From a virus, in the IMG/VR virus record IMGVR_UViG_3300010371_000034, positions 14,778-78,777 of that record: DNA of 64,000 nucleotides; one strand, 5' to 3'. Under the pieces are notes generated by a model. That model saw only the letters and a list, made by a program, of their open reading frames with translations. It was not told the origin of the DNA and did no database searches. Both the position numbers and the translations under genes were made by a program. Below are positions 5,555-38,136 of the stretch, piece by piece. The stretch's first letter is position 1. The number at the start of each line of letters is the position of its first letter.

Positions 5555-5563
5555 CGCCGGTCC

Positions 5564-5917
5564 TCACGCTGCCGCGGTTGACTTCGCGGCGGCCTGGTCG
5601 CGAGCGCGCTGGATCGACACTGCCTCGTGCATCGGGTGCGTCCAGGAAACCGGGTTGCAGACGACCTGCGTGATCTCCAGCGGGTCCGCTCCGTCCTTCT
5701 GCGGCAGCTGCGTCGTCTTCTTGGCGGTGCCGGTCTTGGGACCCTCGCCGGCCGGGTCCGACCAGAACGAGTTGCCAAGCTCGTCACGCCCCTGCTCGGT
5801 CCAGCCGGCCTCGTTGAGGTACTTGCGGGCTTCGTCGGCCGGCAACGGACGCCCCGCGCCTGGCCGGGTCATCGGCGGCACCTCAACCTGCATCTGGTTC
5901 GGTTTGTCTTTCGCCAT
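5564..5917 (-). CDS. hypothetical protein
   Basis: AGGAG RBS, operon context. Confidence 0.55.
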   Translation of the reverse strand: MAKDKPNQMQVEVPPMTRPGAGRPLPADEARKYLNEAGWTEQGRDELGNSFWSDPAGEGPKTGTAKKTTQLPQKDGADPLEITQVVCNPVSWTHPMHEAVSIQRARDQAAAKSTAAA

Positions 5918-5921
5918 GTCG

Positions 5922-6104
5922 TCACTCCTGATCTTCTGGGTAGTTGGGGCGACCCTGCTTCCACCACTCGCCGTCGGCCACGTCCGAGCGGTCGAGCTCG
6001 TTCAACCTGTGCCTGATCCTGCGCACGTCCGTCGCCAACCCCACCAGCGTCACCAGTATCAGCAGGAAGGACGTGGCGCACATCGCCAGCAGCAACAGCT
6101 CCAT
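5922..6104 (-). CDS. small membrane protein
   Basis: one hydrophobic helix; abuts neighbours. Confidence 0.5.
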   Translation of the reverse strand: MELLLLAMCATSFLLILVTLVGLATDVRRIRHRLNELDRSDVADGEWWKQGRPNYPEDQE

Positions 6105-6105
6105 C

Positions 6106-7560
6106 TCATTGCTCCTTCTTGGGCTCCCACTGCGGGGCCGAGTCTTTGTCGTATTCGTACTCGCCCCACGTGGTGTCGTTGGTGAAGTCCGCTATCCCCT
6201 GGTGCCGCAGCCGCACCTTCTTGGTGATGAACGTCCGGGCGCCCAGCTGGGCGAGCTGCCGGGAAAAGAACCAGTCCTCGCTCTCCCTGCGGTTGACCCA
6301 CTTGCCGGTGTCCTTGTCGCGGACGATGTCCGTGGGGAAGTCGAACCACGCGGTCAGCCGCCCTTGCGCATCGGTCTTGTAGAAGGGGTTGGCGTTGACG
6401 TTGTCGACCATCCTCGGCCGCAGGTCCGCGACGAAGCAGCCCGTGTTGTGCAGCAGCACCGCGTCGGCGTGCACCTTAGGGTCGGCGCCCCGCCAATCGA
6501 GCAGGCGCTTCAGGTCCTCGCAGCCGAACGTCGCGGGCAGCTTCTGTACCAGCTCCCGCACCGTCAGCCGGCGGAAGCTGCCCCAGCGGTTGCTCGGCGT
6601 TCCCAGTCCGCAGTTCATCACGCCCCGCAGGTCCTTCATCGCGCATGCGACCGACACCAGGTCGGCCTTCTTGTCCTCGCACTCGTCGACCAGGATGTCC
6701 AGCCAGCCCGCCTGCGGCTTGCAGTCGCTGTGCAGCATCACCGCGTGGCTGATCTCGCCGGCCTCGGCCCGGTTGAGCGCCCTGGCCCACATCGCGTTGA
6801 AGTCGTCCCAGCCGTTGCCGTTGTTGTCGAGGTCCACTCGGTGCAGCCCGATGCTGGCGTGGGCCACCGCCTCGGTGGTTCCCCAGCTGAAGGTGTGCCC
6901 TGGGCACATCAGCTGCACGGTGCGAGGAATGCTCCTGCGCTTCTGGAACACGATCGCGCTGTCGATCCGGTCGAGCAGCCTGAACTCCTGCGGCCTCGAC
7001 AGCACGCGGTTGTCGAGCGCCTCAACCACCCCTGGGTCGGTCGTCGTGCAGTCGTGCATCATCACGAAGCCGCCGTCCGCCACCTTGGGCAGCCACACGT
7101 CCAGGTCTCGGCAGACCGCCTGAAAGCTGTGGTCGCCGTCGATGAACAGCACCGCTATGCCGTCGGGCACGTGCTGCGAGCCGCTAGCGCTGTCGTAGTG
7201 GACCATCTTGACCGCCCCGTTGACTCCTGCGGCGTCAAGGTTCCTGCGCAGCAGCTCCGGCCCGGTCCTCTCGACCTCGGGCGCCAGGTTGCCCAGGCTG
7301 GTCTTGCGGGCGTCGGCTATCTGGTAGAACGGGTCCACCGCGTATACCGAGTGGCCCTTGCCGGCCATGCTGCCCAAACCAAGCGCTGCCGTCGAGCGAC
7401 CCTTCCACGAGCCGATCTCGACGATGTGCCCGGTCGACCGAACTGCCAGACCGTACAGCGCCTCGGCCTCCGACCTGGTCAACCAACCGTCGATGCCGGT
7501 CACCTTGTCCATTGCCTCGTCCCGCCTGACTTCGGCGGGAGTCTTCGTTGCCTCTGCCAT
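6106..7560 (-). CDS. class I SAM methyltransferase (Methyltransf_24-like) fused to glycosyltransferase-like domain
   Basis: VEIGSWKGRST, LFIDGDHS, GGFVMMHD; C-half MLHSD, TGC, SEDWFFS...HQG typical of GT-A folds. Confidence 0.75.
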   Translation of the reverse strand: MAEATKTPAEVRRDEAMDKVTGIDGWLTRSEAEALYGLAVRSTGHIVEIGSWKGRSTAALGLGSMAGKGHSVYAVDPFYQIADARKTSLGNLAPEVERTGPELLRRNLDAAGVNGAVKMVHYDSASGSQHVPDGIAVLFIDGDHSFQAVCRDLDVWLPKVADGGFVMMHDCTTTDPGVVEALDNRVLSRPQEFRLLDRIDSAIVFQKRRSIPRTVQLMCPGHTFSWGTTEAVAHASIGLHRVDLDNNGNGWDDFNAMWARALNRAEAGEISHAVMLHSDCKPQAGWLDILVDECEDKKADLVSVACAMKDLRGVMNCGLGTPSNRWGSFRRLTVRELVQKLPATFGCEDLKRLLDWRGADPKVHADAVLLHNTGCFVADLRPRMVDNVNANPFYKTDAQGRLTAWFDFPTDIVRDKDTGKWVNRRESEDWFFSRQLAQLGARTFITKKVRLRHQGIADFTNDTTWGEYEYDKDSAPQWEPKKEQ

Positions 7561-7622
7561 ATCAACGCTCCTGTGGCTTCCCCACGAGGGTCGCCAGTTG
7601 ATGTAAAGGGCGATCGGTTGGT

Positions 7623-8333
7623 TTAGACGATGGTCTCCGGGTCGGTGTACCACTGCGTCGCGGACACCGCCGTGAACACCCGCTGGCCGAGGTTGGGCAC
7701 GTTGTAGACCGCGTTGGCAGCCGCGCCGTTGATCTTGGACCCCACCTGCGGGAATATCTGCAAGGTGCTGCCCGACGTGGTGCTCTTGACCGTCACCTTT
7801 TCGCCGGCCACCGCAACCGGCAGCAACGCAGCCGCGGCATTGTTGGCCCCGGAGATGTAGCTAAACTGGCTTGGGTTGCCGGCCGACAGCGCCGTGGCGT
7901 TGCCGATCGCGGTGCCACCCGCGGCCACCGAGTACACCGGCTCGTAGGGAGCAGTGCCGGAGGTCTGGAGAACGCCGCTGCCGTCGAACACCGACACCGA
8001 GAAGTTCTGCACCGGCGGGGTGTTGCCCGGCCCGGCGCCCGTGCCGGTCAGGTCGTAGTCCACCGTGGTCGCGGTGGTGGTGTCGGCGAACAGCGAGTCG
8101 TTGGACTCCATCGGGATGCCGCTGATGACCGCGGACCCGCTCACCGGGATCGTGACTGAGCCCGGCAGCGTGCGGGCGGTGCCGCCGTTGCGCTTGACCT
8201 CCAGCGTGACCACCTGGGCCACCGAGGAGGAGGTGTTGCGAAGCCGCAGCGACCAGTAATCGGACTGCGTCGCGGTGGCGAGCGCCGTGGTCAGCGCGGT
8301 GGGCAGCTGCCCGTTGGCAATCAATAAGCTCAT
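7623..8333 (-). CDS. virion structural/decoration protein
   Basis: Thr/Ala/Gly-rich; LP.A.AG..V.V....IFP..G.KING pattern; follows capsid genes. Confidence 0.55.
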   Translation of the reverse strand: MSLLIANGQLPTALTTALATATQSDYWSLRLRNTSSSVAQVVTLEVKRNGGTARTLPGSVTIPVSGSAVISGIPMESNDSLFADTTTATTVDYDLTGTGAGPGNTPPVQNFSVSVFDGSGVLQTSGTAPYEPVYSVAAGGTAIGNATALSAGNPSQFSYISGANNAAAALLPVAVAGEKVTVKSTTSGSTLQIFPQVGSKINGAAANAVYNVPNLGQRVFTAVSATQWYTDPETIV

Positions 8334-12386: not shown

Positions 12387-12585
12387 GTTGCCTCGCTATC
12401 ATCGCCCTGGCCAGCTGCGCCCCCACCGCTCTCGCAGTGCAGCTGGTCGCGTACCTGGCGGCGAAACCCACTTCTCGTTTTATTCCGACCCCCGTAAGAC
12501 TGCCGGTCATCACGTCGGCGTATACCCGGCCCCACAGCACCTGCCAGCCTGGCAGCACCGGCACGCCTGGGTATCTGTCCGTCAT
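12343..12585 (-). CDS. hypothetical protein
   Basis: ATGA overlap with protease stop. Confidence 0.4.
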   Translation of the reverse strand: MTDRYPGVPVLPGWQVLWGRVYADVMTGSLTGVGIKREVGFAARYATSCTARAVGAQLARAMIARQHAAVAKKTDLERAP

Positions 12586-15500
12586 CGCCGGCTCCCGTTG
12601 AGGCCGACACGCTTGACGGTAGTCTCAAGCTCCATCGCGGAGTCCCGCAGCATGTCGAACAGCGCCTTCTGCTCTTCGTTGGTCGATTCCTCGGCCTTCT
12701 GCTCGGTCTCGGCGCCGGCTTCTTCCTTCTCCTCCTCCGGCTCGTCCTCCTTGGTCTCCTCCGGGTTGCCCATGTCGTTGAGGGCCTTCTTCAACCGCTT
12801 GGCGTTGTAGGACAGCGCGTCCTTGTGGTGTTCGGGAACGTCGGGGGCGCCCTTGAGCGACTGCATGTGGTCCAGCGCCTTGCCCATCGCGGCCTCGTGC
12901 GTGCCGTCCTCCAGCCCCTTGGCCAGCGCGTCGCCGTGCATGTCCAGCGCGGACTTGTGGTGCTCCGGCATGTCGTGCGCCACGGCCATGCCTTTCATCG
13001 CCGCGGACACTGACTTGATCGTCTCGGCGTGCTCCTCCTTCAACTCGGCGGGGTTGCCCTCGTCGTGCAGGTCGCCCATCGCGCCCTTGCCGCTGTCCAG
13101 ATTGCCGGGGTCGGAGACGGAGGACTTGCGGCGGAGTGATTTATATGCGGGGGATTTTCCAATCTTTTTGTCATCATGACCGTCTTCATATCCTGTGTTA
13201 TAGTCTTGAAATTCCCTTGTACCATTTTTGTATGGATTATTATGAATTTTACCACCATATCCAGCAACATAACCTGCCTTGAAAGCAGTGTCCAATGCTT
13301 TCTGCGCATGCCTCGGCAGCACCAGCCACTTGCGGCCGTCGCTGCCCGACTTGACCACGCCGCCCGCCGCCAGCACCTTGGCCACCTTCGCGGCCGACGC
13401 CTTGCGCGTGCCCCAGCGGCCCTTTTCGTTCTGGTAGCGCTCCAGTATCTCTTCAGTCGACGGATCGGATTCCTCCGCCTCGTCGCCCAGCGCTCCCTGG
13501 TGCTCTGGCTCGGCTGCTTCCTCGGCCGCCCACTCCGGCGAACCGATCTCGGACTTGTCCTCCTCGCCCTCCAGATCAGCCTGCAGCGCGTCATCCTCTT
13601 CCATATCGACCTCGCCGCCCAGGTCCATGTCCACTTCGGGAATCTCCCCGCGATCGACCAGGTTGGCCTCGCCCACTTCCTCGTTGGTGGTGTCGCTCAA
13701 CCCCTTGCCGACCTCCTCGATGTCCTTCTCGCTGTGCTCGCCGAACATCGCCTTCAGCGACTCGGCCCGCTCGCCCAGCGACGCCAGGTGCTCGGTCAGC
13801 GCCTTATGCGCCTTGTTCTCCGCGCCGGTCTGCGGGTCAAACGGAGTGATGTCCTTGAGCGCCTCGGTCAGGTAGTCGCGGTCGGACTTGGCGGACTGGT
13901 ACAGGTGAGCCATCGCCACTTCGTGGGGCGCGACGTCCATCGGGGCCGGGTCGTCGCTTTGCACCTCGGCGCCATCGTCGACCGATTCCTTCTGCACTCT
14001 CGTCTTCATGTTCTTTCTCCCGGCCAGCAGCTCCTTCGCTCCGTCCACCCAGCCAGCGTCCCAGTCCTCGCGGTACTGCGGGCCGCGGCCCTCGTTGTCG
14101 TTCTTGTAGGGGTTGGTGCTGCGGGCGCGGCCATCCCACGCGGCGACGTAGCCTTGGTCGTATTGGGTGTCCATGTCCTTGCGGCGGTTGAACGACTTCT
14201 TCAACCACACTTGCAAGGTATCCTTTGTACCTATCTGCCGTGGGTTAGGCACGCTGGCCAGATACCCGCCTAGTTTGTAATCCTCACTGTCCTCCGGCTT
14301 ATCATATAACCAGTCGACCAGCTGGTCGTACTCGCCGTCGGACATCGTCACCCGCTTGCCGGCCTTCAGGTCGAGCCACTTGCTGCCCAGTCCCGACTTC
14401 TGCGCGATGTACCCGCCCGACGCGCCGGAGGTCTCGCCAAGCGATTTTTCAACCTTTCCATCATTCACTTCCGCAATCGTTTCTCCATGCTCATTTTCAA
14501 TACTCACGCCGAATGATGGTTGCAATTCTTCTTCCATCTTTATTGCAGCGACAATAGCTTGCTGTTCTGAGCCGTTTACCGTTTTAGTTCCTTTGGAGGA
14601 AACTAAACGGTAACGATTTTTTTGCACCAGTCCTTTTGCCTTCCCGCCGCTGCCGTCGTCCAGGCCGTTCAGCCAGTCCTTGCCCGCCGGAGTGTGCGGA
14701 TCGTAGGGGCAGTCCCCACTGGACTTGCCACGCTTTCCCGCGGCGAACCCCTCGCGGTACTCCTTGCTGCCGTAGTCCTTCCGCAGCGCCTTCTCCCTTC
14801 CGGTACCGCCGCAAGCCGTGCATTCGATCATTTCGCCGTTGCCGCTCCTGACCCATCCACGACCTTTACAGCGTTTACAGGGGTCTACGCCAGCTTTCAG
14901 TACCTTCGTCACCCGCGCCATCGACCCCTTCGCCACCGCCCGGCCGTCGGCTCGGTGCGCGACGTGGATCGGTCCCTGCTTGGTGCGGTAGGTGGCGATG
15001 TATCCCTTGCCCACCCGTCGCAGCAGGCTCTTCTTGCCGCACGCCGCGCCGAACATGCCGCGCTGCGCCTCGGTCAGCGGCTGGCCGTTAGCCTCACCGT
15101 CGCGGAGGATTTGGCAGGCGTCCGAGGAGGTGATCTCTTCAGAGGGTTGCGCCTTGGTCATATCGATCTCCCCCTCGCCGCGGCCGTGGTCCATGTCGGC
15201 CTGGACGAGGGCCTTGTGCCGCTTCCACAGCGCTTTCGCCTTGCCGCACGGGCAGGCGTCGCCCTTGGAGCAGGCGGAGCAGCCGCAGGATTTGCGCGTA
15301 ACTTCACGGCTCTTGATCTGCTGTTGTTTCGGCATCGGACACCACCCCGTGAAGCAGCCGCCGGATTCGTTGGTCGATTTGATCGCGCACGTGCCGCGGA
15401 TGCACTTCTCCATCCGGTTGCTGATGTGGCCATGCTCCTTGTCCGCGATGTCCCGCCACTCGCACATCTTGTCGTGGCAGTCGCGGCACCAATCCTTCAG

Positions 15501-16154
15501 CTCGGCCGGCGCGGACTTGTACCACTTGGGTTGCACCGTGGCGAACGGGTTGCTGGGCACGCCGACCCAGCTGCCCTCGGTCTCGTCCCACCGGATGAAG
15601 TCGTATCCGCCAATGTCGCCTTGGTGCTGGTGCGCCTTGACCCGTTCCTTGCGCTGCGCCTCGATCGGCACGAACGCTACGGAGGTGGCGTTGACGAACC
15701 CGCGGTCAACCTTGCCCTTGAGGAAAGCGGCGTCCGGGTCCACCATGTCCCACCAGCACCACTGCTGCATCCGGTTCTCTTCCGGGAAGCAGCACAGCCG
15801 GCCGTCCGGCGACATCGCCTTGCCCACCGGTATCTGCCACTCCTGGTGCCCGAAGAACCACACCGGGTTCCTCTGGTAGTTCCCAAGGTAGGCGCCCATC
15901 GGGTGGACCGTGTCGCCGACCCGGTCCTCTTCAAGGCTGACCAGCGTAGCGACCGTGTACTGCTCCTTGCGGTCTTCGGCGCCCGTCACCCCGCTGCGGC
16001 CGTATCCCAGCACCGCCGAACCGTCTGGAGAGTCTTTGTAGATGTAGCAATAGTTCTCGACCAGCGACTTGGTCGACAGCGAGCCATCGCGCAGCGCCTT
16101 CTCGATCGCGCCGCGGCGGGAGGCCACGTCAGCTACGGATGGGTGTACCAGCAA
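12582..16154 (-). CDS. HK97-type prohead protease with ~950-aa modular C-terminal extension
   Basis: DRVGD.V.P.G....Y.RNPV.FFGH...PVGK, G...ATSVAF.P, E.SWVGVPSNP.A in first ~210 aa; acidic scaffold-like stretch and small modules after. Confidence 0.85.
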   Translation of the reverse strand: MLVHPSVADVASRRGAIEKALRDGSLSTKSLVENYCYIYKDSPDGSAVLGYGRSGVTGAEDRKEQYTVATLVSLEEDRVGDTVHPMGAYLGNYQRNPVWFFGHQEWQIPVGKAMSPDGRLCCFPEENRMQQWCWWDMVDPDAAFLKGKVDRGFVNATSVAFVPIEAQRKERVKAHQHQGDIGGYDFIRWDETEGSWVGVPSNPFATVQPKWYKSAPAELKDWCRDCHDKMCEWRDIADKEHGHISNRMEKCIRGTCAIKSTNESGGCFTGWCPMPKQQQIKSREVTRKSCGCSACSKGDACPCGKAKALWKRHKALVQADMDHGRGEGEIDMTKAQPSEEITSSDACQILRDGEANGQPLTEAQRGMFGAACGKKSLLRRVGKGYIATYRTKQGPIHVAHRADGRAVAKGSMARVTKVLKAGVDPCKRCKGRGWVRSGNGEMIECTACGGTGREKALRKDYGSKEYREGFAAGKRGKSSGDCPYDPHTPAGKDWLNGLDDGSGGKAKGLVQKNRYRLVSSKGTKTVNGSEQQAIVAAIKMEEELQPSFGVSIENEHGETIAEVNDGKVEKSLGETSGASGGYIAQKSGLGSKWLDLKAGKRVTMSDGEYDQLVDWLYDKPEDSEDYKLGGYLASVPNPRQIGTKDTLQVWLKKSFNRRKDMDTQYDQGYVAAWDGRARSTNPYKNDNEGRGPQYREDWDAGWVDGAKELLAGRKNMKTRVQKESVDDGAEVQSDDPAPMDVAPHEVAMAHLYQSAKSDRDYLTEALKDITPFDPQTGAENKAHKALTEHLASLGERAESLKAMFGEHSEKDIEEVGKGLSDTTNEEVGEANLVDRGEIPEVDMDLGGEVDMEEDDALQADLEGEEDKSEIGSPEWAAEEAAEPEHQGALGDEAEESDPSTEEILERYQNEKGRWGTRKASAAKVAKVLAAGGVVKSGSDGRKWLVLPRHAQKALDTAFKAGYVAGYGGKIHNNPYKNGTREFQDYNTGYEDGHDDKKIGKSPAYKSLRRKSSVSDPGNLDSGKGAMGDLHDEGNPAELKEEHAETIKSVSAAMKGMAVAHDMPEHHKSALDMHGDALAKGLEDGTHEAAMGKALDHMQSLKGAPDVPEHHKDALSYNAKRLKKALNDMGNPEETKEDEPEEEKEEAGAETEQKAEESTNEEQKALFDMLRDSAMELETTVKRVGLNGSRR

Positions 16155-26578: not shown

Positions 26579-27418
26579 CTATAAGCGAGGCAGGTACCTG
26601 CGCTGCGCCAGTTGTTGGATGAACGAAAACTGCCTGTCGAGGTGCTCCGACAAGTCGTCCGGAAGCACGCCGACCCACGACTCGCCTATGTCCGGTTCGA
26701 CAACTTTGCGGACCTCGTGCAGCCCCATCCCGTAGACCGTGTCGTCTTCCTTGACCATCTGCACCACGTTGTTTGGGTCGCACGTGAACGATTCGACGCC
26801 GCACTCCTCGCACACCCGCTTGACCGTCTCGATCGGTCGGTGGGTCAGCTCGTGGTACGGCACGATAACCAGCCTGTCCTGCAGCCCGCGCTCGAAGGCG
26901 TCTTGCAGGCAGTTGACCACGTACCCTATCGTATGGTCGATGCTGCACAGCCGCTCCGCCCTGCCGCGGACGGTAAGCGTGCGGTAGACGTCGTTGCCCG
27001 ACAGCGGGTGGTCGGTTACGAACGACTTGCGGTATAACTTCTCGAACGACGCCACCACGTCCCTGATGTCCCGAATCGGAACTATCACCTTTATCTTGCG
27101 TCCCAGCACCGCCTCCAGCAGCTCGATCTTGGACAGGTGGCCGCGGCTTTTGTCGAATACATGCTTGCCCAGCGACAGTTCGCGTGCGTAGAACCCCTCA
27201 ACCATCCCGTGCATCGACGCCACCACGCGCGGCTCGATCTGCTTCAAGCCTTGGGCGATGAACGTCGGGCGCTGCATCCACACGTCACGCACCGTGCACA
27301 GCAGGTCCAGCAGCCCGTCGTTGGTCGGCGTGCAGTGGTGTCGCGGGCACTGCGCAAGCAGGTTCTGCAGCAGCGTGCTGCCCGACCTCGGCATGCCGGA
27401 TGAGAAGAATATCGTCAC
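26579..27418 (-). CDS. sulfotransferase family protein
   Basis: 5'-PSB SGMPRSGSTLL, DKSR, 3'-PB IRDIRDVVASF, V.Y.EL...P. Confidence 0.88.
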   Translation of the reverse strand: MTIFFSSGMPRSGSTLLQNLLAQCPRHHCTPTNDGLLDLLCTVRDVWMQRPTFIAQGLKQIEPRVVASMHGMVEGFYARELSLGKHVFDKSRGHLSKIELLEAVLGRKIKVIVPIRDIRDVVASFEKLYRKSFVTDHPLSGNDVYRTLTVRGRAERLCSIDHTIGYVVNCLQDAFERGLQDRLVIVPYHELTHRPIETVKRVCEECGVESFTCDPNNVVQMVKEDDTVYGMGLHEVRKVVEPDIGESWVGVLPDDLSEHLDRQFSFIQQLAQRRYLPRL

Positions 27419-27427
27419 GCTATCTCC

Positions 27428-27979
27428 TTAAACCCGCTCCACCTCGGACACCTTGCCATCGTCCGAGTGCCTGACCACCAGTCGCGTGGGCCTCTCCATC
27501 TTCTCCATCCGCTTGACCAGCCCCGCCAGCGTCGCGATCATCTCCCTATTGGACCGCTCGATCGCACCCATCGTATCGGCGTTGGCCTTGACGAAGGACT
27601 TGACCAGCTGCTCGATCGACTCCGACAGCGCGATCCCTTGGCTTTCGATCGCGTCGACCACGCCTGAGAAATCCACCACGGCGTCTGCCGGCTTGACCGT
27701 CACCTCGTTGACCGGCTGCATCACCGCAATCGATGCGCTCAGTTGCTTGATCGCCTCCAGCACCACCCCCTGGTCCACCGCTACGCGCTCGTTGTGGAGC
27801 AGTACGTCGGCCAATCCCTTCTCGATACCGTCGGCTAAGCTCTGCTGGTCCACCACCGGCCGGTCGGCCTGGTATTCAAGTGCGTTCAGGCGCTTGACCA
27901 ATGGCTGGAGCACCCGCTCCTTGATCGAGTCCACCAGCGCCTTGACCTTGACGCCGTCGCTGACGGTAATCGCGCTCAT
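27428..27979 (-). CDS. coiled-coil hypothetical protein
   Basis: ATGA overlap with portal stop. Confidence 0.55.
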   Translation of the reverse strand: MSAITVSDGVKVKALVDSIKERVLQPLVKRLNALEYQADRPVVDQQSLADGIEKGLADVLLHNERVAVDQGVVLEAIKQLSASIAVMQPVNEVTVKPADAVVDFSGVVDAIESQGIALSESIEQLVKSFVKANADTMGAIERSNREMIATLAGLVKRMEKMERPTRLVVRHSDDGKVSEVERV

Positions 27980-30900
27980 AGCACCCCCTCCAGCATCTTG
28001 TCGATCTCCTGGCGACAAGCCGCGTACTCGTCTTGCTCCTTCAGCCGCGGCCGCAGTCGCTTGCCCGCCAGCGCCCCGTGCACGCCCCTGATCGTCTCGG
28101 CGACTGCAACCACGGCCGCGATGTTGCCCGGTATCGGCATCGTCGCCAGCATGCCCACGGCCATCGCCAGCGCTCCCTTGCGCCCGTAGCGGCTCTCAAG
28201 CGACAGCCACTTGTCGGCAAGCCACCTGCCGGCCTGCTGGACCGACAGCGCCTTGGCCCGCATCTCTCTGGTGGCCGGGTAGACGCGGTCCCGCTTCTCC
28301 GCATCGTACAGCTCGCGCAGGTGGAACTGCACCTCGACGACCATGCCGCAGGGCGTCCGGTAGTTGCGCAGCATGTCCCGGTAGCCGCCCTGGAGCGGCT
28401 GCGCGAACCGGTCCTTCTGCCGCACCAGCACCAACCGCCCGTCGATCTCCTCGGCCGCGTCCCGCAGCTCTTGCTCGGTGTCTCTAACCACCGACGCCCG
28501 CACCACGTCCAGCAGCCGCGACCAATCGCCGCCGTAGTCCCGCTCGACCTTCTCCTCGGCCCGCTCAAGCGACTTGATCGGAACCTGCACCGCGCCTTCG
28601 ACGCCTTGCAGCGCCCGGTCCAGTTCGCCCTGCGCCTGGACCACCAGCGCGTACAGCTCCTCCGGCTTGTCCACCGGCTGCTTGACCATCTCGCCGCCAC
28701 GCTGCTCGACCTCGGCCAGGATGTCCGGCCAGGGGGAGCGGCCGTCTATCGCCCGGTCGTCCACGTACAGGTCCGCCACGACCTTGGCGCTGGCTCCCGC
28801 GGGCTGGTCGCTGTTGGTGTTGATCGAGTCGTATTCTATCCCGCTGCCGTCCAGCTGGTCCTTGATCGCCTGCACGTCGCCGCGGGTCGTCCACACGATG
28901 ATCTTCCATCCCCGGTTCCGCAGCGCCGCCAGCGCCTCCCGTGCCCCGTCGCGGACCTCGCCGAAGTGCCCCTCGCCCCGCCAGCCGTCGTACTCCAGGA
29001 TCGTGCCGTCCAGGTCCACGGCCACGGTCTGCTGGTGCTTGTAGACGGTCCAGCCCTTGCGCACCAGCTGCTTGCTCGGCTTGCCGTTTGGCTTGTCAAT
29101 CTTGCCGCCGTCGGCCTGCGCCTCTTCGACTTCTTGCGCTTGCTCGTTCGCGTCGTCGGCCTTGCCGCTGTCGCTGACTTCCTCGCTGGGCAGGTCCTCG
29201 TTTGACTCCACCGTGCCCAGCTTGTCGGAGTCTTTGCCGGCTGCCATCGACTCGGAGTACTGCCGCACAAGGTCGGTCAGGTCGTCCCCCTTCTCCTCGA
29301 CGTTGACCGGCGCTGGCATCGGACCGCCCGGACCCTGGACCCACGGGTTGTCGCCGCCCATCGCGTATGGCTTGCGGCCGCGCAGCACCCGGACCTCGTT
29401 GGTGGTGATCGCGGGCGGGCTGGCCTGCATGTCCACTTGGAGGTCGCTGTTGACCTGCGCGGGGTCTGCCGGCGTCAGGTTGTCGTACCATATCCTTGCC
29501 TCGCGGACGCCGCCCGACCCGCCGTGGCCCGACCCGGTCAGACTGGACCACGCGGGAGTCTCCTCGTCGAACTCCTTGGCAAGGTGCTTGGTCTCGACTT
29601 CGCCCTCCTGGGCCAGCAGGGGGTTCAGGCCGTTCTCGCAGTTTCCAGTAACGTGAACCTTGCCATTTCTGCGCACGAAGAACAGACCTGTCGGCACCGT
29701 TACACACCACACCGTGCCGTCGTACTCAACGGTGCTGCGCATGTCTGGTGATAGCACAACCTCTTGCCTGGTTGATACGTCAACGCGGTACGCTACCTTC
29801 CTGTCGCTGCGTGGGTCTGGTTGTACACATACAGTTGCAGAGAATCCACACTTGACTGCGATCTCTGCAACGTCATCAGCAAGTTGCTTGCTAACCGTCT
29901 TGTAATTGGAGCTAGAGTTGCCGGTGTTCTCGCAGTCCATCCATGCGTGCCCGTCTCCTTCCATAAGAGCATCAAACAGTACCCTCAAGTCCTCAGCCGA
30001 CCATGACTTTACCTCTTCAGGAACGCGCTTGTTCTGGGAACCAATGCCTAGTGATACTAAGTAGTCATAGATTCCCTTGTCGCTCGCTTTCCAAGTGTGG
30101 CAACTGGTGTCTCTAGGGTCAACCTTGTCTGTCCACTTTAGTGGCAGCGCAAGGATTCCTGCCTTTACTGACTCAAACGTTCTTGTTGATTTCTCTGATT
30201 GCGTAATACATATTCCCCACCCTCCGTTCGTCCTGTCGCAAAGATGCCCCTCACTCAGGTAGAGGCCAAGAAACCGCAACCACACCTTCCTGTCTACGCA
30301 CCTGTCGTCCAACTCATGCACTATATTCCTGCTACCGCATGGGTTGTATGATGGGAATGACACGTACTTCGGCGGGTCAGTTGCTCCTATTAGCGGTGCC
30401 GACCTCTTTATCCTGTACGTCGTGGCAGGCGTCATGTCGTCTATCTTGATCGTTTCCCAGGGGTAGTTCAGGTGTTTCCTTGACGCAGCCGGGAACCGCT
30501 GCAAGTGTACCCGATGCCCTGGAGTCATGCAGGCGTCAACGCGCTGCCCTTGCCACAGGTGCATCGGCCCCTTATACGGCTCAACGACGATCCTAGACGG
30601 TTTGTGGTACACCATGCTCTGGGATGCTTGATCGTAGCAAGCGACCACAGTATCGTCAGTCAACTCCCAGCACTTCTTCCAACCACAGTCAGTCAAGCAC
30701 TCCGTGTCATCATCCAAGCACCAGCCGGCCAGCGTCGCCAGCACCGAGCCGAACGTCATGTCTTGCACCATGCCAAGTGCAGCTTGAGGCGTGCCAAAGC
30801 CGGCGCAGATCGCCTTGGCCATCTGGTCGAACCCCTCCATGTAGGCCATGTCGGTCGGGGAGAACGACAGCGGGGTGACCACCGTGCCGCTGGGGGTGAA

Positions 30901-31992
30901 CAGCGGCTTGCCCACGTTGAACTCGCCCTGGTGCTTCTGGGCGATCTTGGCCTCCCAGCGCGATATCATGTAGTCGTCGGGATCGGTGTAGCCTGGCGGC
31001 ATCGACACCCAGAACTCAGGCCGGGCCATGTTGATGAACTGCGACCAGCGGGACCGTGCTATCGACTCCTCCGTGTCGATCCACCTTGACAGCGACCACA
31101 GCTTGCTGTATCCGTCCAGCTTGTTGACGGGAGACTTGAACAGATGGATGATCACATCGTCGATGGGAATCTTGAGCATGCCGGCCGAGCCCATGCCGCC
31201 CCACGGCCGTACCTCCAGGTACTCGATAAGCCGGTCAGCGTCGGGATGCTCCGGGTCGACGTGCTTGTGGCCGCCGGTCCTTGGCCACACCCAGTGCGAC
31301 GGGATCACCCACCGCTCGCACGGCCTGCCGAACCTGTTGCGCACCTTCCACTCGTAGGCCACACCGCACAGGAACTTGAACATCCGCAGCTCGTACATGT
31401 AGTCGAAGTGCGTATCAACGGGATTGGGGTTCTGGATCAGTGAAGGGAGGAGGTGCCTGCGCTCTATCGGCTCAAGCTCCTCGTGCGGCTTGAGCACGCT
31501 GAGCGCCTTGGAACGGTACTCGCCGATGGTGAGGAACGAGCTGTTGCTGCCGGACAGCTTCCGAGCCGCGTCGTAGTTGGAGTAATCCACCCAGTCGCCG
31601 CCGGCCGGCGCCTGCGGTTTGGCCCCCCACTTGCCCGGCTGGCCTTTGTGGATGTCTGATCCCACGTGGCCAGTACCACCGAAACCCCTACCGGTGGCGT
31701 TGAGCAGCGACCGCTCGCACGCCTTGACCGTCCTGCCCGGCACGCCGGAGTCATGCACCCAGGCGACGTTGGGGTAGACGCTGGACAGCTTCATGCAGTT
31801 GGCGTGGATGACGACGTAGGTCCAGTCCAGGTAGTGCTGCACCTGGGAGATGCGGTCCTGCGACCAGCCGCCGGGATATCCGGTGCCATGCGCGGCCGGG
31901 AACAGGCGGCCCAGTATCCGCTCGCCCGGCGTGGCGCTCTTGCTCACCGCGCCAGCCGATGCCCTGGTCAAGTGCCTGGCCGATTTAATCAC
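27976..31992 (-). CDS. portal protein (HK97-like) with LAGLIDADG intein and C-terminal HAD and RelA/SpoT-like domains
   Basis: L..PNP, G.AY, W.IPS.WV, DVIIH.F.SP.....GYS, F.N.ARP, ICAGFG.P; later VAVDLDGT..Y.DDRAI and IKS.ERA.EK..DVVR..GYRD..EVQ. Confidence 0.88.
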   Translation of the reverse strand: MIKSARHLTRASAGAVSKSATPGERILGRLFPAAHGTGYPGGWSQDRISQVQHYLDWTYVVIHANCMKLSSVYPNVAWVHDSGVPGRTVKACERSLLNATGRGFGGTGHVGSDIHKGQPGKWGAKPQAPAGGDWVDYSNYDAARKLSGSNSSFLTIGEYRSKALSVLKPHEELEPIERRHLLPSLIQNPNPVDTHFDYMYELRMFKFLCGVAYEWKVRNRFGRPCERWVIPSHWVWPRTGGHKHVDPEHPDADRLIEYLEVRPWGGMGSAGMLKIPIDDVIIHLFKSPVNKLDGYSKLWSLSRWIDTEESIARSRWSQFINMARPEFWVSMPPGYTDPDDYMISRWEAKIAQKHQGEFNVGKPLFTPSGTVVTPLSFSPTDMAYMEGFDQMAKAICAGFGTPQAALGMVQDMTFGSVLATLAGWCLDDDTECLTDCGWKKCWELTDDTVVACYDQASQSMVYHKPSRIVVEPYKGPMHLWQGQRVDACMTPGHRVHLQRFPAASRKHLNYPWETIKIDDMTPATTYRIKRSAPLIGATDPPKYVSFPSYNPCGSRNIVHELDDRCVDRKVWLRFLGLYLSEGHLCDRTNGGWGICITQSEKSTRTFESVKAGILALPLKWTDKVDPRDTSCHTWKASDKGIYDYLVSLGIGSQNKRVPEEVKSWSAEDLRVLFDALMEGDGHAWMDCENTGNSSSNYKTVSKQLADDVAEIAVKCGFSATVCVQPDPRSDRKVAYRVDVSTRQEVVLSPDMRSTVEYDGTVWCVTVPTGLFFVRRNGKVHVTGNCENGLNPLLAQEGEVETKHLAKEFDEETPAWSSLTGSGHGGSGGVREARIWYDNLTPADPAQVNSDLQVDMQASPPAITTNEVRVLRGRKPYAMGGDNPWVQGPGGPMPAPVNVEEKGDDLTDLVRQYSESMAAGKDSDKLGTVESNEDLPSEEVSDSGKADDANEQAQEVEEAQADGGKIDKPNGKPSKQLVRKGWTVYKHQQTVAVDLDGTILEYDGWRGEGHFGEVRDGAREALAALRNRGWKIIVWTTRGDVQAIKDQLDGSGIEYDSINTNSDQPAGASAKVVADLYVDDRAIDGRSPWPDILAEVEQRGGEMVKQPVDKPEELYALVVQAQGELDRALQGVEGAVQVPIKSLERAEEKVERDYGGDWSRLLDVVRASVVRDTEQELRDAAEEIDGRLVLVRQKDRFAQPLQGGYRDMLRNYRTPCGMVVEVQFHLRELYDAEKRDRVYPATREMRAKALSVQQAGRWLADKWLSLESRYGRKGALAMAVGMLATMPIPGNIAAVVAVAETIRGVHGALAGKRLRPRLKEQDEYAACRQEIDKMLEGVL
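29641..30720 (-). mobile_element. intein (360 aa) with LAGLIDADG endonuclease in portal
   Basis: CLDDDTECLT..GW start, TPGHR block B, LGLYLSEG/LMEGDG, VWCVTV, ends GN followed by Cys+1. Confidence 0.92.
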
Positions 31993-32571: not shown

Positions 32572-32760
32572 TCACTTCTCCCTGTCCGGCGTCCTCGCGC
32601 TGCTGCGCAGGTCGGTCAGCTCCGGCCCGTCGATATCCACGTCCGCCGCGGTCTTGGCCCGCGCGTCGGAGCAACCCGCGCACACCTCGGTGTCGGGAAT
32701 CGCCTCAATCCTGCCCCGCAGAATCTTCTTACCGCACCTGCTGCATGTTCGATCCATCAT
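32572..32760 (-). CDS. TraR/DksA-type C4 zinc-finger protein
   Basis: CSRCGKKI..GRIEAIPDTEVCAGC matches C..CG..I...R..A.P....C..C. Confidence 0.7.
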   Translation of the reverse strand: MMDRTCSRCGKKILRGRIEAIPDTEVCAGCSDARAKTAADVDIDGPELTDLRSSARTPDREK

Positions 32761-33039
32761 CAGTCTCCATACAACGCATTGCATATGCCGCTACGATGTC
32801 GCTGTCGCCCGATTTCTCCAACTCCGCGACAGCGACCACCAGGTTCTGCAATTCCTGCCTCACTATGGCGCAGACGGCGGCGAGGTCTTCGGCGGTAAGC
32901 ATCGCATCACCTCAAGAAAGCGCGGCTGGCAGGGATTTTCCCGGCGTTTCGGGCGCCCCGTAACTTGGTCTTCGCTGCATGCCGAATCCAAGTTTAGCTG
33001 GGTTCACCTAGCTTGAACCGGGCCAGTTCCGCGCGTTCA

Positions 33040-33801
33040 TCATCTCACCCAGAAGTCCCTGCTCTTCTGCTCGCCGCACCACAGGCCGATGGCGCATGCC
33101 AAGACCTGATCGTCATGGTCCTTCTCTCTCCAGGCCTCGAAACTCTCGTGCCCCGTCTCAGCGTTCTGCTTCACCTTGAAGTTCAGCAGCTCGTCCACCA
33201 GCCCGCCGCAGTTCTTCATGTCCTGCTCGATCGTCAGCCGCTTGGTCCCCAGCAGCACCTGCACGATCGACACCAGCTCCGACTTGGGTACGTTCCAGCC
33301 GCCCGCGGCGTTCTCCACCACTGTCTTGCCTGATTGTATCCATATCGGCCTGATCGTGCAGCGGGTGGACTTCGCCAGCGACATCTCCTTGCGCAGCCAC
33401 TCGACAACCGGCACACCCACGCCCGTGTAGTCCACCGCCAGCACCGTGCCGCCCAACCCGCCCCGGTCCGCGCCCCGCGAGTACGCCTTGACCAGCCAGC
33501 TGAGTATCCTGTCGTAGTCCGTACCGACGTCCCAGCGCTCCATGCGCACCAGGTGATACCGCCACTGCCGCGCCCTGCGCTCCTCTGCCGTCAGAGCGCC
33601 GGACATCGGCCTGCGGGCCAGCAGGTCGGGCTTCGGCAGAACCGCCACCGTCTGCTGCCCGTACAGCTCGTCCAGGTCGTTGACCACCTCTGGGCCGCTG
33701 GGGGCCAGCATTGGACGCGACCTCTCGAACAGCGCGAAAGCACTAAAATCGACAAGTTTTCCAATGTCGAGCCCCGCTATGTATTCACGCTCGACGCTCA
33801 T
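33040..33801 (-). CDS. terminase nuclease (RNase H-like) domain as separate gene
   Basis: GLDIGKLVDFSA, VDYTGVG.PV, VPKSELV, L..EL.NF, HDD.V.A.A. Confidence 0.82.
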   Translation of the reverse strand: MSVEREYIAGLDIGKLVDFSAFALFERSRPMLAPSGPEVVNDLDELYGQQTVAVLPKPDLLARRPMSGALTAEERRARQWRYHLVRMERWDVGTDYDRILSWLVKAYSRGADRGGLGGTVLAVDYTGVGVPVVEWLRKEMSLAKSTRCTIRPIWIQSGKTVVENAAGGWNVPKSELVSIVQVLLGTKRLTIEQDMKNCGGLVDELLNFKVKQNAETGHESFEAWREKDHDDQVLACAIGLWCGEQKSRDFWVR

Positions 33802-33992
33802 CCACCCACTCCCAGCTCCACCCATTCACCCCATGTCGGGTCGTCGTGCCGCAGCTCCTGCGCCATGATCACCGGCTCGCCGATCTCCTCGAACGCCTCC
33901 AAAGTGCACGCCTCGCAGCAGCCGTGGGTCACTTGGAGTGGGTCGCCGTCTCGTATGACTGCGCCGCACCAGGAACACACTCGTCTGAGCAT
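33798..33992 (-). CDS. small Zn-finger protein
   Basis: CSWCG...THGCC..C. Confidence 0.55.
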   Translation of the reverse strand: MLRRVCSWCGAVIRDGDPLQVTHGCCEACTLEAFEEIGEPVIMAQELRHDDPTWGEWVELGVGG

Positions 33993-35044: not shown

Positions 35045-37483
35045 TCACTCGAACCACAATCGCTTCTCTCCGTCGCCCTTGACCACCGCGGCCTGCACCG
35101 CGTCGCGGCTGAAAACGCTGTCTATCGCGTCGACGAACTCGCAGAAGTATTCCTGCCTGTACCACCTGTTGCCTATCATGGCCCGTTCCTCTTCGAGGAA
35201 CGACGCCTCGATCCGCGGGCACTGGTCGGCGGTCACCCGGTACGTCTCGAACGGCGGCCGCGCTTCTTTGCCTTCGGCGCCGAGCTGGTAGTGTCGGTTG
35301 AGCCAGGACTCGGTGCCGGTATACGGGCCTTGCGAACGCGGAGCAACTTCACTTGCCCTGGGTACCACGACCGAAACGACTCTTTCTCCGTCCCGAACAT
35401 ATCCCGAAATTGGAATACCTCCGGCGGTTCCATTCCCGGCTGCACCTCGAACTCGTATATCCACGTCGTCGGTTGCTCGGCGACCGCGCTCATATGCTTG
35501 TTCTGCTTTTTCACAGTTCTGCCACGCCTCCCAGAACCAGCCCCGCTTGCCATACGGCGTGCTGGCCACCACAAGCCTCGGCGCCCTTCCGTGGACTGCC
35601 TTCGTAGCTGCCTGGAACGGCCGCACCAGGTTGTACAGCTGGTCCGGTATCCTGCTGGCCTCGTCGAGCACCAGAAGCGTCACCGAGCTGAAGCCCACGA
35701 TGGTGTCGGGGCTGCCGGGCAGGCTGATGATGCGCGAGCCGTTGGGCAGCTCCATCGACAGCGCCTTGTCCTTGGTCGCCTCGGACACCTCGATACCCAC
35801 CAGCGCCGCCCCGTCCCAGCCCTTGGCCTTTATCATCCCCTGCTCGTGCGCCGCGTCTTCCGCCAGGCTCTTGGGGTTCCACGGCCGCCTGTGCACCTTG
35901 CCGCCGATCAGCCCGCGCCACAGCATCTTCACCTTGAGCAGCAATTCCGCCGACTGCCGCAGCGTCTTGGATATCAGCAGCACCTCGCTGTGCGGGTGAA
36001 GCAGCGCTTCAAGCAGCGCCATCGCGGCCAGCGTGAAGCTGTTGTGGGTTGGGATCATCGATTCCCCGGCTAGATACAGGCAATTCGGAGAGTCAACAGT
36101 TATGCACTTTACAATCCTTTTACCGACGGGTTTTATTCCAACTATGTATCTCAACCTACGTTGTCCTTGCCTGCCACCATCCAGATTGACTGTCGCTTTC
36201 TTCCTCGTCAGACGGAATGGCATAATTGTAGGGGTAAATCCGATCCTCCATTTTGGACCGCAATCCTTACCATTCATCTTTGCTCGACCCTCAGACATCG
36301 TTGCAATTATACCCAGACTCCTGGATAGTTCGAGAAACCCAGCAGCGAGCATCGGGTTAGTGCTAGTGAATTCACACCTACTGTTGTTCGGATTACTGCT
36401 ACCACAACCATCAGTGTCCATCAATCCTTGAAACAGCGCTAATCTTTGCTGAAACGATGCACGAAGGTATTTGTCTGGTATGTGCTTATTGTTGAGCAGG
36501 TTTTCCCTTCTCAATACAGCAATTAACTCTATGTTGGTCCAAGCATCAGATTTACCTGATCGCCTTCGCAGTCTCTCACACTTTCTGCAATGACCCTTAT
36601 GCCAATGTTCAGCCTTTGGATGACCTCGGCGGCATACTTTAGAACCATCTATACCACCTATAGTGAATATGTACGCTTGGCTTCCTGGCTTCATTCTGGG
36701 CTGCGATACGTTGTAGCCAGCCTTGGCAATCTCCATCGTTATCTCATCATCCATTGTAGTAAACTGCGCACTGCAAGAGGTGCCGTCGCCCAGCCATGCA
36801 CCAAGTACATACGGGTCTATCGGTAAATCAGCTTCAGGCAAATCTAACGGCCGGCAAGCCGGAATAGCATGGTTATTCTCTTGGCATTTTCCCTTTTTCA
36901 ATGTGTCTGCTATGCCGTTAGTCGTAAGAGTATTTACCTTCAACTGACTGCCGTTCTTCCATACCGACTTCCAACCGGCCCAGTTTTCAACTATAGTTCC
37001 GTGTGCACGTAGCATAGCATTTTTAGTTGCTAAGTCTATCGTGTTCCACTGGTGGTCTCCGTCAGCTATGATTACAGAGCCATCAGAGAATGATACCTCA
37101 TACGCCTCCCTGTATTCAAGTTCTGAACATCCAATGACCTTTGTTGGATTTCCCATCTCATCAATTACTGAATCACCTATCTCCAACGCGCCCATGCTGG
37201 TCCATCCGGTTGGAGTCGGTATAGGCGTATCTATGTCTAAAGCCTTGCCGCTCTGCCGCGAGCAAAGCAGCAGCAGCTTCTCCGCGCTGCTGGTCAGCAC
37301 CGATCTCTGCCAGGGGTCCGCCTCCGCGTTCAGCGGTGCGAACACCAGGCACGGGTCGTCCCTCAGCGCGGCCATCGGGTCGACTAGCACGTCCGCGAAC
37401 AGCTCGCTCGCCGCCCGCCACAGCGCGTCCTCGCTCCGGCGCGGCTTAGCAGATACCAGAGGGTTGTTCATCAACAACGTCAC
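35045..37483 (-). CDS. terL: terminase large subunit ATPase domain with intein
   Basis: PWQ, Walker A SRQSGK|S, Walker B LLVLDEA, ASTP.G..GWF, RQEY.CEF; GTG 37483 overlaps the terS stop. Confidence 0.9.
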   Translation of the reverse strand: MTLLMNNPLVSAKPRRSEDALWRAASELFADVLVDPMAALRDDPCLVFAPLNAEADPWQRSVLTSSAEKLLLLCSRQSGKALDIDTPIPTPTGWTSMGALEIGDSVIDEMGNPTKVIGCSELEYREAYEVSFSDGSVIIADGDHQWNTIDLATKNAMLRAHGTIVENWAGWKSVWKNGSQLKVNTLTTNGIADTLKKGKCQENNHAIPACRPLDLPEADLPIDPYVLGAWLGDGTSCSAQFTTMDDEITMEIAKAGYNVSQPRMKPGSQAYIFTIGGIDGSKVCRRGHPKAEHWHKGHCRKCERLRRRSGKSDAWTNIELIAVLRRENLLNNKHIPDKYLRASFQQRLALFQGLMDTDGCGSSNPNNSRCEFTSTNPMLAAGFLELSRSLGIIATMSEGRAKMNGKDCGPKWRIGFTPTIMPFRLTRKKATVNLDGGRQGQRRLRYIVGIKPVGKRIVKCITVDSPNCLYLAGESMIPTHNSFTLAAMALLEALLHPHSEVLLISKTLRQSAELLLKVKMLWRGLIGGKVHRRPWNPKSLAEDAAHEQGMIKAKGWDGAALVGIEVSEATKDKALSMELPNGSRIISLPGSPDTIVGFSSVTLLVLDEASRIPDQLYNLVRPFQAATKAVHGRAPRLVVASTPYGKRGWFWEAWQNCEKAEQAYERGRRATDDVDIRVRGAAGNGTAGGIPISGYVRDGERVVSVVVPRASEVAPRSQGPYTGTESWLNRHYQLGAEGKEARPPFETYRVTADQCPRIEASFLEEERAMIGNRWYRQEYFCEFVDAIDSVFSRDAVQAAVVKGDGEKRLWFE
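36041..37243 (-). mobile_element. class 3 (Ala1) intein, 401 aa, LAGLIDADG
   Basis: ALDIDTPIPTPTGW start; WCT triad (DHQW, VKCITV, PTHN); LGAWLGDG and LMDTDG; Ser+1. Confidence 0.92.
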
Positions 37484-38136
37484 GCCACCACCTCGTGCCT
37501 GTCGACCACGCTCAGAGGGGCCAGCGCGGCGGTCCTTTGCGCCACCGCCCGCCACAGGTCCGGATGGTCCTCAAGTACTTCCCGCACCGCATCTTTTATC
37601 GCCGCTATCACCGCCAGCGCCTGCTCCAGCGTCACCAGCCCCGGTTTGCACTCGTCCAGACCCAGCAGTTCGCGCTCCGCCTCCAGCGTCCGCATGATCG
37701 TCGTCAAGTAGGAGTTGTCCGGCAGCCGCCCTTCCTTGGTCACTATCTTCTTCAGCAGCACCTCGCTGGTGATGTAGTCCTCGACCCCCACCGCCTCGCT
37801 GTCCGTGCCGTACTCCTCGACCAGCTTGTGCGAGTCCTCCATGCTGCGGTCGTATGCCAACCACGCCTCGCGTCTGATCTCCCGGTACTGTTCGATCTTC
37901 GTGTTGACCTCGTCCTGCCGCTCCTTCAGCCGCGCAGCCTTGTACTCCGCCCGCAGCTGCTTCAGGTACACGCTCACCTGGACGTTGGTGATGTTGATCC
38001 CGTTCGACCGCTCCAGCTCGTCCCGCACCTGCCACAGCGAGTAGCCGCGGCGGTCCAGCTTGGCCACCAGCGCCTTGACCTCCTCACGCTGCGTGTTGGA
38101 GAACTTCGGTCCACGCTTCTGTTGTTCGCCGGCCAT
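37480..38136 (-). CDS. terminase small subunit (putative)
   Basis: N-terminal HTH, R.ELLGLD motif, directly upstream of terL. Confidence 0.7.
   Translation of the reverse strand: MAGEQQKRGPKFSNTQREEVKALVAKLDRRGYSLWQVRDELERSNGINITNVQVSVYLKQLRAEYKAARLKERQDEVNTKIEQYREIRREAWLAYDRSMEDSHKLVEEYGTDSEAVGVEDYITSEVLLKKIVTKEGRLPDNSYLTTIMRTLEAERELLGLDECKPGLVTLEQALAVIAAIKDAVREVLEDHPDLWRAVAQRTAALAPLSVVDRHEVVA

Follow-up and report, generated by a model that had tools for sequence, protein, structure and literature searches.

A tailed-phage portal protein bearing a haloacid dehalogenase and RelA/SpoT-fold domain pair, a likely head-loaded effector

The DNA analysed here (the window) is a 64,000-nucleotide stretch covering bases 14778-78777 of the IMG/VR virus record IMGVR_UViG_3300010371_000034, which is 78,777 bp long and rated 94% complete. 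It encodes a 1338-aa protein that is the only portal of an uncultured tailed phage and that carries, behind its portal core and in the same reading frame, a haloacid dehalogenase (HAD) phosphatase domain and a RelA/SpoT-fold (RSH) domain. Both lie in a cargo slot between an acidic linker and a conserved tail module, and we consider it most likely, with a probability of roughly 60%, that this co-inherited HAD-RSH pair is an effector loaded into the phage head that acts in the newly infected cell. An earlier note on this DNA had described the two domains on the portal and had proposed that twelve copies are packaged, clipped and delivered with the genome; its observation is confirmed by matches far beyond chance, and its interpretation is partly supported.

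The portal and its two cargo domains

The portal assignment comes from PF04860 (HK97-type portal), which matches residues 177-416 (E 4.9e-20, 72.4 bits against a cut-off of 39.1), and from phrog_2662 and phrog_12 of PHROGs, which label the same residues portal. This gene (window 27976-31992, minus strand, with residue i starting at position 31992-3(i-1)) gives the sole PF04860 match in the 78.8-kb genome, and the HAD and RSH matches fall in its single frame, as the earlier note had it. The PF04860 profile is covered to position 248 only, as residues 425-784 are an intein of 360 residues, and the remainder aligns with orthologues past the intein. Toward cultured phages the portal core shows 28% identity or less. 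A single-sequence query of IMG/VR retrieved no close portal relatives, and an alignment query found 12 related portal loci, all with other or no recognisable cargo. The same 1338-aa-frame protein is also recorded in the database from two contigs, with a start 15 codons later.

The first cargo domain is an intact HAD domain with a Rossmannoid fold and complete catalytic residues. The string DxDGT...TTR...K..ADLYVDD noted earlier resolves into all four HAD motifs between residues 993 and 1079 (motif I, DLDGT 993-997; motif II, T1035; motif III, K1070; motif IV, D1078/D1079), and these are kept in 30-31 of 31 relatives. The domain matches phrog_1238 with E 6.9e-21 and the uncharacterised protein BT_0820 (PDB 2obb) with E 1.4e-6; the latter is also its structural match (Z 13.0, root-mean-square deviation (rmsd) 2.9 Å over 110 residues), while Pfam Hydrolase scores 24.3 bits, slightly below its cut-off of 26.4. 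Weaker structural neighbours, with Z about 8.6-9.5, are MDP-1, lipin/Pah2, GmhB, a phage arabinose-bisphosphate phosphatase and the T4 Pnkp phosphatase. BT_0820 and the small phage HADs of PHROG 1238 (SPO1 gp30.2 and others) share the cap-less fold and the motifs, but they stand alone, whereas the portal HAD is fused to an RSH domain and to a portal. For the label 'phosphoheptose isomerase' that PHROG 1238 bears in PHROGs and GenBank we found no backing test.

The second cargo domain has, by structural modelling, a RelA/SpoT synthetase fold with its catalytic motifs and lies nearest to Tas1/Apk1, the (p)ppApp synthetase toxin that is a type VI effector of Pseudomonas aeruginosa (6OX6). Tas1 is the best sequence match among solved structures: phmmer with the domain alone reaches it at E 3.6e-7, and a profile of 43 homologues at E 1.5e-22, followed by SaEAS, RelP and RelSeq, with every other solved RSH at E 8e-6 or weaker. 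An exhaustive search with the domain collected 1781 cluster representatives at E <=1e-3. The motifs KS..RA.EK, D.VR, GYRD and EVQ listed in the earlier note are all present, the RSH-like part being placed in this comparison at residues about 1131-1245 (window 28258-28602), and the catalytic residues (the basic Syn1 residues K1140, R1144 and K1148, D1162, R1165, RQKD 1191-1194, GYRD 1203-1206, E1220 and Q1222) are invariant or nearly so across 43 and 69 relatives. Furthermore, the counterparts of Apk1 R330, of E382 with the Gln that follows it, and of the Mg-binding Asp are kept (residue list: PMC12691689).

The AlphaFold2 model of residues 978-1338 has a mean pLDDT of 82.6, with the HAD and RSH domains each above 90. 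In this model the synthetase fold, which the earlier note had left to be checked, is present by comparison with Rel, small alarmone synthetases (SAS) and Tas1: Rel, RelQ, RelP and Tas1 all superpose on the RSH domain (Z 12.9-14.9; rmsd 2.1-3.0 Å over 126-142 residues), and Foldseek placed Tas1 first, with top matches that were all RSH. For Tas1 the values are Z 12.9, 2.1 Å, 127 residues and 25% identity, with the ATP-binding and catalytic residues conserved. The model also matches CapRel (Z 11.4-11.5), as one would expect if the domain were not a maker of free alarmones at all. The same idea gains from cap-less HADs such as T4 Pnkp, which work on nucleic-acid ends (Z 8.6-8.8), and from RMF modules in the same virion, which also point at translation. 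We regard it as very unlikely, since the sequence is far closer to Tas1/Apk1 than to any other solved RSH and the nucleotide-making SAS enzymes score higher structurally (Z 13-15).

Among the RSH relatives, Pfam RelA_SpoT (PF04607) touches 24 of 43 in one set and 22 of 69 in the other, at 20-34 bits, and its cut-off of 27 is passed by two, one being P0034 (P numbers are our handles for single proteins) and the other a protein of Bordetella phage PHB04. A Pfam search with the RSH piece of the portal alone gave noise only (Ribosomal_L34e, HAM1_C). The RSH clade is also found on VgrG, PAAR, the core of extracellular contractile injection systems (eCIS), MuF, PF06381 portals, InPase and ART-PolyVal proteins, carriers typical of delivered effectors.

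A co-inherited HAD-RSH dyad

A HAD domain precedes the RSH domain by 60-70 residues in about 23 of the roughly 160 RSH-bearing proteins collected (counted as cluster representatives). This HAD-linked set takes in nearly all of the best-scoring RSH relatives, and its carriers range from 384 to 4059 aa. On a FastTree phylogeny of the RSH domain, built on few columns and with weak support, HAD-linkage needs 4 label changes against 18.2 for shuffled labels, and none of 500 shuffles was as low; related RSH sequences share labels, so the tree shows clustering and gives no count of origins. HAD followed by RSH is a recurrent, co-inherited two-domain module. The conserved active site of the HAD, together with this co-inheritance, argues that the HAD works together with the RSH domain. 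Presence of the dyad in more than 20 sequence clusters suggests that phage synthetases act alongside a phosphatase, which could shift the product or effect expected of them. A full-text search with partial coverage of the literature found no paper pairing 'haloacid dehalogenase' with an alarmone synthetase or toxSAS.

One way for the two domains to cooperate would be a built-in antidote, in which the HAD hydrolyses the RSH product, much as the HD domain acts in long Rel enzymes or Aph1 toward Apk2, and the fusion does no damage in the producing cell before its halves are separated or inactivated at maturation. Co-inheritance fits this, and so does the order of the domains, with the hydrolase N-terminal to the synthetase as in long RSH enzymes; in addition, the genome is without an HD_4 hydrolase or a recognisable immunity gene, and the related RSH gene of PHB04 is trailed by an HD_4 hydrolase and a metallophosphatase. 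Against it, HADs strip single phosphates via an aspartyl-phosphate, and 3'-pyrophosphohydrolase activity is not known for them; after delivery the two domains would still be in cis if no cut is made between them; and 136 of the about 160 RSH relatives are without a HAD. An antidote role seems to us, on balance, rather doubtful.

An exchangeable slot at the portal C-terminus

The acidic linker, the AKALS sequence and the hydrophobic segment mentioned in the earlier note were all found again (residues 901-980, 1243-1251 and about 1272-1300, respectively), and comparison with other portals places them at the borders of a slot. The end of the linker includes KPSKQLVRK (residues 971-979). The orthologue P0007 shares the linker as far as LVRK, and its tail module is 72% identical, but between the two it carries an Acb1/2H phosphoesterase (38.3 bits). 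In P0179 a portal and a 2H domain are likewise joined to the tail module, and P0027 is a plain 500-aa portal without cargo that ends in the tail module. P0094 and P0121 are portals of the same family bearing the RSH domain, and the cargo of P0121 also holds an Acb1/2H phosphoesterase. The tail module is 58-78% identical in P0007, P0179, P0027, P0004, P0008, P0009, P0023, P0180, P0181 and P0182; outside detected portals it lies at the N-terminus of P0009, internally in P0004 and P0023, in the 187-residue P0180, and beside ART-PolyVal and RMF domains in the metagenomic polyvalent protein P0181. In the AlphaFold2 model it forms long helices with pLDDT 55-70, and its hydrophobic segment is moderate (19-residue Kyte-Doolittle maximum of 1.71). 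No usable match to the tail module was obtained in the ESM Atlas, and the genome contains no second copy of it.

Since the tail module comes after the cargo, and is also the end of a portal that has none, the enzymes are inserted into a slot between conserved flanks and do not form a tip. The hydrophobic segment as the mere end of a toxin tip was thus ruled out, being part of a conserved module common to cargo-less portals. The comparison shows that cargo has been exchanged in this slot between orthologous portals. The GC content at third codon positions (GC3) of the cargo (0.92-0.94) resembles that of the portal core (0.88-0.90), which indicates that the cargo has long been resident. A more distant 715-aa portal at another IMG/VR locus (UViG_3300020577_003989, L012 1459-3603) ends in a Peptidase_C39-like domain (PF13529, E 1.2e-11).

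Additionally, the nonapeptide E-Y/M-R-S/A-K-A-L-S-V occurs in two near-identical copies in the portal protein, and the window has no other copy of that form. The first copy, before the portal core, is conserved in orthologues, and the second marks the junction of RSH domain and tail. This repeat may serve as a cleavage site for the maturation protease, or it may be a scar left by recombination.

A wider reading, which we hold to be possible but tentative, is that the portal C-terminus is in general an effector slot whose contents (HAD-RSH, Acb1/2H, Peptidase_C39) are exchanged by recombination, that the tail docks or transports the cargo, and that HAD-RSH is a new two-step nucleotide pathway. 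The tail, which is also found on free polyvalent proteins, would then dock cargo at the portal or carry it through the envelope, and pyrophosphorylation followed by trimming would yield, for example, pAp, or the removal of AMP would make the loss of ATP irreversible, so that the dyad would be more than a plain alarmone toxin. A slot with toxin-type or anti-CBASS-type cargo (CBASS, cyclic oligonucleotide-based antiphage signalling system) joins polymorphic toxins and anti-defence effectors on one delivery platform.

The Acb1/2H cargo also raises the question of whether the dyad itself is a parallel anti-defence tool, one that alters immune signalling nucleotides or their precursors and does not arrest growth as a toxin. 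Acb1/2H phosphoesterases occupy the slot of P0007 and occur in the cargo of P0179 and P0121, a 2H domain is joined to HAD-RSH in P0003 and P0040, and an immunity gene is not evident in this genome. Nevertheless, action of an RSH enzyme on immune signals that are cyclic or derived from ADP-ribose is not known, most of these signals are without a free 3'-OH, and the nearest characterised relatives of the domain are toxins; we give this possibility little weight.

Proposed function in the newly infected cell

Portals are dodecamers whose C-terminus points toward the capsid interior. This would give twelve copies of an extension of about 48 kDa per head, and twelve packaged copies, as in the earlier note, are plausible. 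In the scheme that we favour, twelve HAD-RSH copies would be built into each head at the face toward the capsid interior, would be released from the portal as the head matures and would exit together with the DNA, the candidate places for the cut being the acidic linker and, as a motif-level hint, the E-x-R-x-KALSV motif. General Pfam and PHROG scans of the whole portal protein list no peptidase (MPTase) domain, and the prohead protease of the phage is a separate 1190-aa open reading frame (ORF; 12582-16154, minus strand).

Once in the new host, the RSH domain would use ATP to pyrophosphorylate purine nucleotides at their 3' position and so make (p)ppApp, (p)ppGpp or both. The HAD would work on this nucleotide pool too, its substrate being the AMP left over from the reaction or the pyrophosphorylated product itself. 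The result would be a drain on ATP together with a stringent-like, hibernation-like shut-off. In this regard, the closest characterised enzymes take pyrophosphate from ATP, attach it to the 3'-OH of adenine or guanine nucleotides, and arrest growth, according to passages of PMC10083569 and PMC12691689. A virion polyprotein bearing RMF modules and a TraR/DksA zinc-finger gene in the same genome are in keeping with this and are counted in support.

Several points weigh against this reading. The phage is uncultured and known from sequence alone. PF04607 does not match the portal copy even at E 10, so that RSH membership rests on profile and structure; the per-domain searches proposed in the earlier note were thus borne out for the RSH profile (E 1.5e-22), the RSH fold (Z 13-15) and the HAD (Z 13.0), and failed for this Pfam family. 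According to passages of PMC12691689, the product differs among Apk1 homologues, which make (p)ppApp or (p)ppGpp, or the two together, and with such variation homology cannot tell which product the portal RSH makes. The position of the tail module after the cargo means that the simple picture of a toxin tip fails. Furthermore, an enzyme as fast as Tas1 would, by analogy, poison the phage-assembling cell too, and neither an HD_4 hydrolase (PF13328, Aph1-type) was found in the 78.8-kb record nor a Tis1-like immunity gene recognised in the genome, the latter without a Tis1 profile search. Lastly, the portal remains in the capsid, so delivery needs cleavage, for which the evidence is the motif-level hint.

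This last point is where a different outcome has to be weighed, namely that the enzymes are not delivered at all: they would stay tethered to the portal and be active only in the producing cell, as free subunits or in late proheads, or would be inert passengers of the capsid. A role in the producing cell could be the remodelling of nucleotide pools or the blunting of late-acting defences. That portals stay with the capsid, that the protease site is a candidate motif only, and that the tail comes after the cargo and also ends the cargo-less P0027, so that the polypeptide may need to stay whole, are all compatible with it. However, the same RSH clade sits on VgrG, PAAR, eCIS core, MuF and giant polyvalent proteins, the orthologous slot holds Acb1, which is useful from the earliest minutes of infection, and the long acidic linker is conserved and typical of cleavable or flexible tethers; we judge non-delivery to be unlikely. 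Fusion to a portal also has a practical side: it sets how many copies of the enzyme there are (twelve) and where they sit, so that its packaging, processing and ejection can be tested directly by proteomics and cryo-EM.

Table 1. Features of the portal-cargo gene and of related genes in the window.
Feature	Residues	Window position	Strand	Evidence or remarks
Whole portal-cargo gene, 1338 aa	1-1338	27976..31992	-	Single uninterrupted frame; GTG start as listed
Portal N-extein	1-424	30721..31992	-	PF04860 at 177-416; 61% identity to intein-less orthologue P0007
Intein with LAGLIDADG homing endonuclease	425-784	29641..30720	-	CLDDDT start, VTGN end, then C785; missing exactly there in P0007
Portal C-extein	785-900	29293..29640	-	62% identity to P0007 residues 429-548
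Acidic Ser/Asp/Glu-rich linker ending KPNGKPSKQLVRK	901-980	29053..29292	-	Left slot border; shared with P0007 up to here
Cap-less (C0) HAD phosphatase domain	984-1100	28693..29043	-	D993, D995, T1035, K1070, D1078, D1079
Predicted Tas1/Apk-like RelA/SpoT-fold 3'-pyrophosphokinase domain	about 1105-1245	28258..28680	-	Sequence, profile, AlphaFold2 fold, motifs
Second E-x-R-x-KALSV copy	1243-1251	28240..28266	-	RSH/tail junction; first copy at 158-166, window 31495-31521
Hydrophobic helical tail module	1250-1312	28057..28245	-	WLADKW..RYGRKGALAMA..PIPGN..AE.IRG; right slot border
Downstream 183-aa gene		27428..27979	-	ATG overlaps portal stop (ATGA), behind GGAGG site; no family assigned
Short MuF-like head protein encoded separately, 287 aa		18717..19580	-	PF04233 32.6 bits; no toxin tip; 8 kb from portal

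Comparison with known systems

Effector domains anchored on MuF or portal proteins are an accepted route for loading the head in passages of PMC5512222 and PMC10083569. Tas1 itself, like the portal RSH, has a hydrophobic stretch beside its toxin domain in the alignment, but its carrier is a PAAR protein of the type VI secretion system without a HAD, and its immunity protein Tis1 is encoded next door, whereas the portal RSH has a HAD upstream, a phage portal as its carrier and no recognisable immunity gene beside it. A 2025 survey of 1,369 Apk1 homologues names in its passages on carriers Sec, LXG, XopAD, MuF, DUF4157 and Rhs/PAAR (PMC12691689); in the main text of that survey we found neither a phage-portal carrier nor a haloacid dehalogenase partner.

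The nearest published phage counterparts are the polymorphic toxins of the Apk2 type on MuF proteins, paired with IapK/Tis1-like and Aph1 immunity (PMC10083569, which, like PMC12691689, cites Jamet 2017 and Bartoli 2023 for them). Like the portal cargo they are phage-encoded, head-associated and Tas1-like synthetases, and their co-injection with the DNA has been proposed; the role of MuF toxins, and whether they are injected, is stated as unknown (PMC10083569). Their carrier is an N-terminal MuF domain, in contrast to the present phage, where, as the earlier note had pointed out, the portal bears the domains and MuF is a separate and short gene without a toxin tip. The Apk2 toxin forms the C-terminal tip of its protein, whereas the portal RSH is internal, with a conserved tail after it and a HAD upstream, and Apk2 modules come with an Aph1 HD_4 gene that the portal phage genome does not have.

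In passages of Iyer et al. 2017 (PMC5512222), RelA/SpoT domains are reported from polyvalent proteins of phages and from MuF, and 2H, PBECR and InPase domains from fusions to portals. The polyvalent proteins described there resemble the portal protein in having several effector domains and a head-packaging anchor in one polypeptide, and with portal, HAD and RSH in one frame the present protein has the at least two effectors plus packaging anchor of this class. Those passages tie RelA/SpoT to MuF and polyvalent proteins without a HAD partner, and a linker-cargo-tail slot is absent from them. Relatives of the modules of the portal cargo occur in polyvalent proteins of 2,000-4,300 aa.

Among cultured phages the closest RSH relative is that of Bordetella phage vB_BbrM_PHB04 (MF663786), with 37% identity and a PF04607 score of 30.6 bits. 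It lies directly after the portal gene as a separate 493-aa protein, unfused and without a HAD, and is followed (5077-8037 for the whole group) by a 69-aa ORF, an HD_4 small alarmone hydrolase and a calcineurin-like metallophosphatase. PHB04 is a possible experimental model for RSH-type cargo. Its HD_4 hydrolase is mis-annotated as a bifunctional synthetase/hydrolase. Compared with the known MuF-Apk2 toxins and the portal-fused 2H and InPase domains, what is new here is that a portal is the carrier, that HAD and RSH form a conserved dyad, and that the cargo sits in an exchangeable slot with a conserved tail. The 360-aa intein that splits the portal core, the dyad in non-portal carriers and the conserved tail module had gone without mention in the earlier note.

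Inteins and neighbouring genes

The portal intein is 360 aa long, with Cys1 at C425, its C-terminal Asn at N784 and the +1 Cys at C785, and it has LAGLIDADG-type motifs at residues 575-583 and 676-682; its penultimate residue is Gly, in contrast to the usual His. In P0007, the 61%-identical metagenome orthologue, the exteins are joined precisely at the intein site. The GC3 of the intein is 0.62, against 0.88-0.90 for the exteins. A LAGLIDADG/Hom_end insert is also present in the 836-aa large terminase ORF (window 35045-37555, minus strand), at about residues 359-430, so that both packaging genes of the phage, each having an intein, have been invaded. A 261-aa ORF at 33040-33825 (phrog_27743) is a candidate relative of the nuclease half of the terminase.

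Downstream of the portal gene lies the gene for a helical 183-aa protein that is translationally coupled to it. This protein has no family or PDB match, and searches of PDB sequences and the ESM Atlas gave nothing usable. The predicted complex of the RSH domain with it scored 0.00 with a poorly folded partner, which is evidence neither way. When the neighbouring genes were compared with the related IMG/VR portal loci, no tblastn match was obtained at E 1e-3. MazG as part of a 'stringent toolkit' is not supported by the PF03819 model, which gave no match in the genome.

The gene following that of the 183-aa protein, and thus two genes past the portal, encodes a sulfotransferase (26579-27418, minus strand; PF13469, E 2.1e-17; phrog_27463), an unusual enzyme among head genes. 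Just upstream of the portal gene cluster is a 70-aa TraR/DksA-type zinc-finger gene (32572-32784, minus strand; PF01258, 28.3 bits). Lastly, the 1190-aa head-protease ORF contains an RMF module that scores 31.4 bits, over the Pfam cut-off, and two weaker ones, the matches lying at about 14652-14768, 14037-14186 and 13209-13313 on the minus strand.

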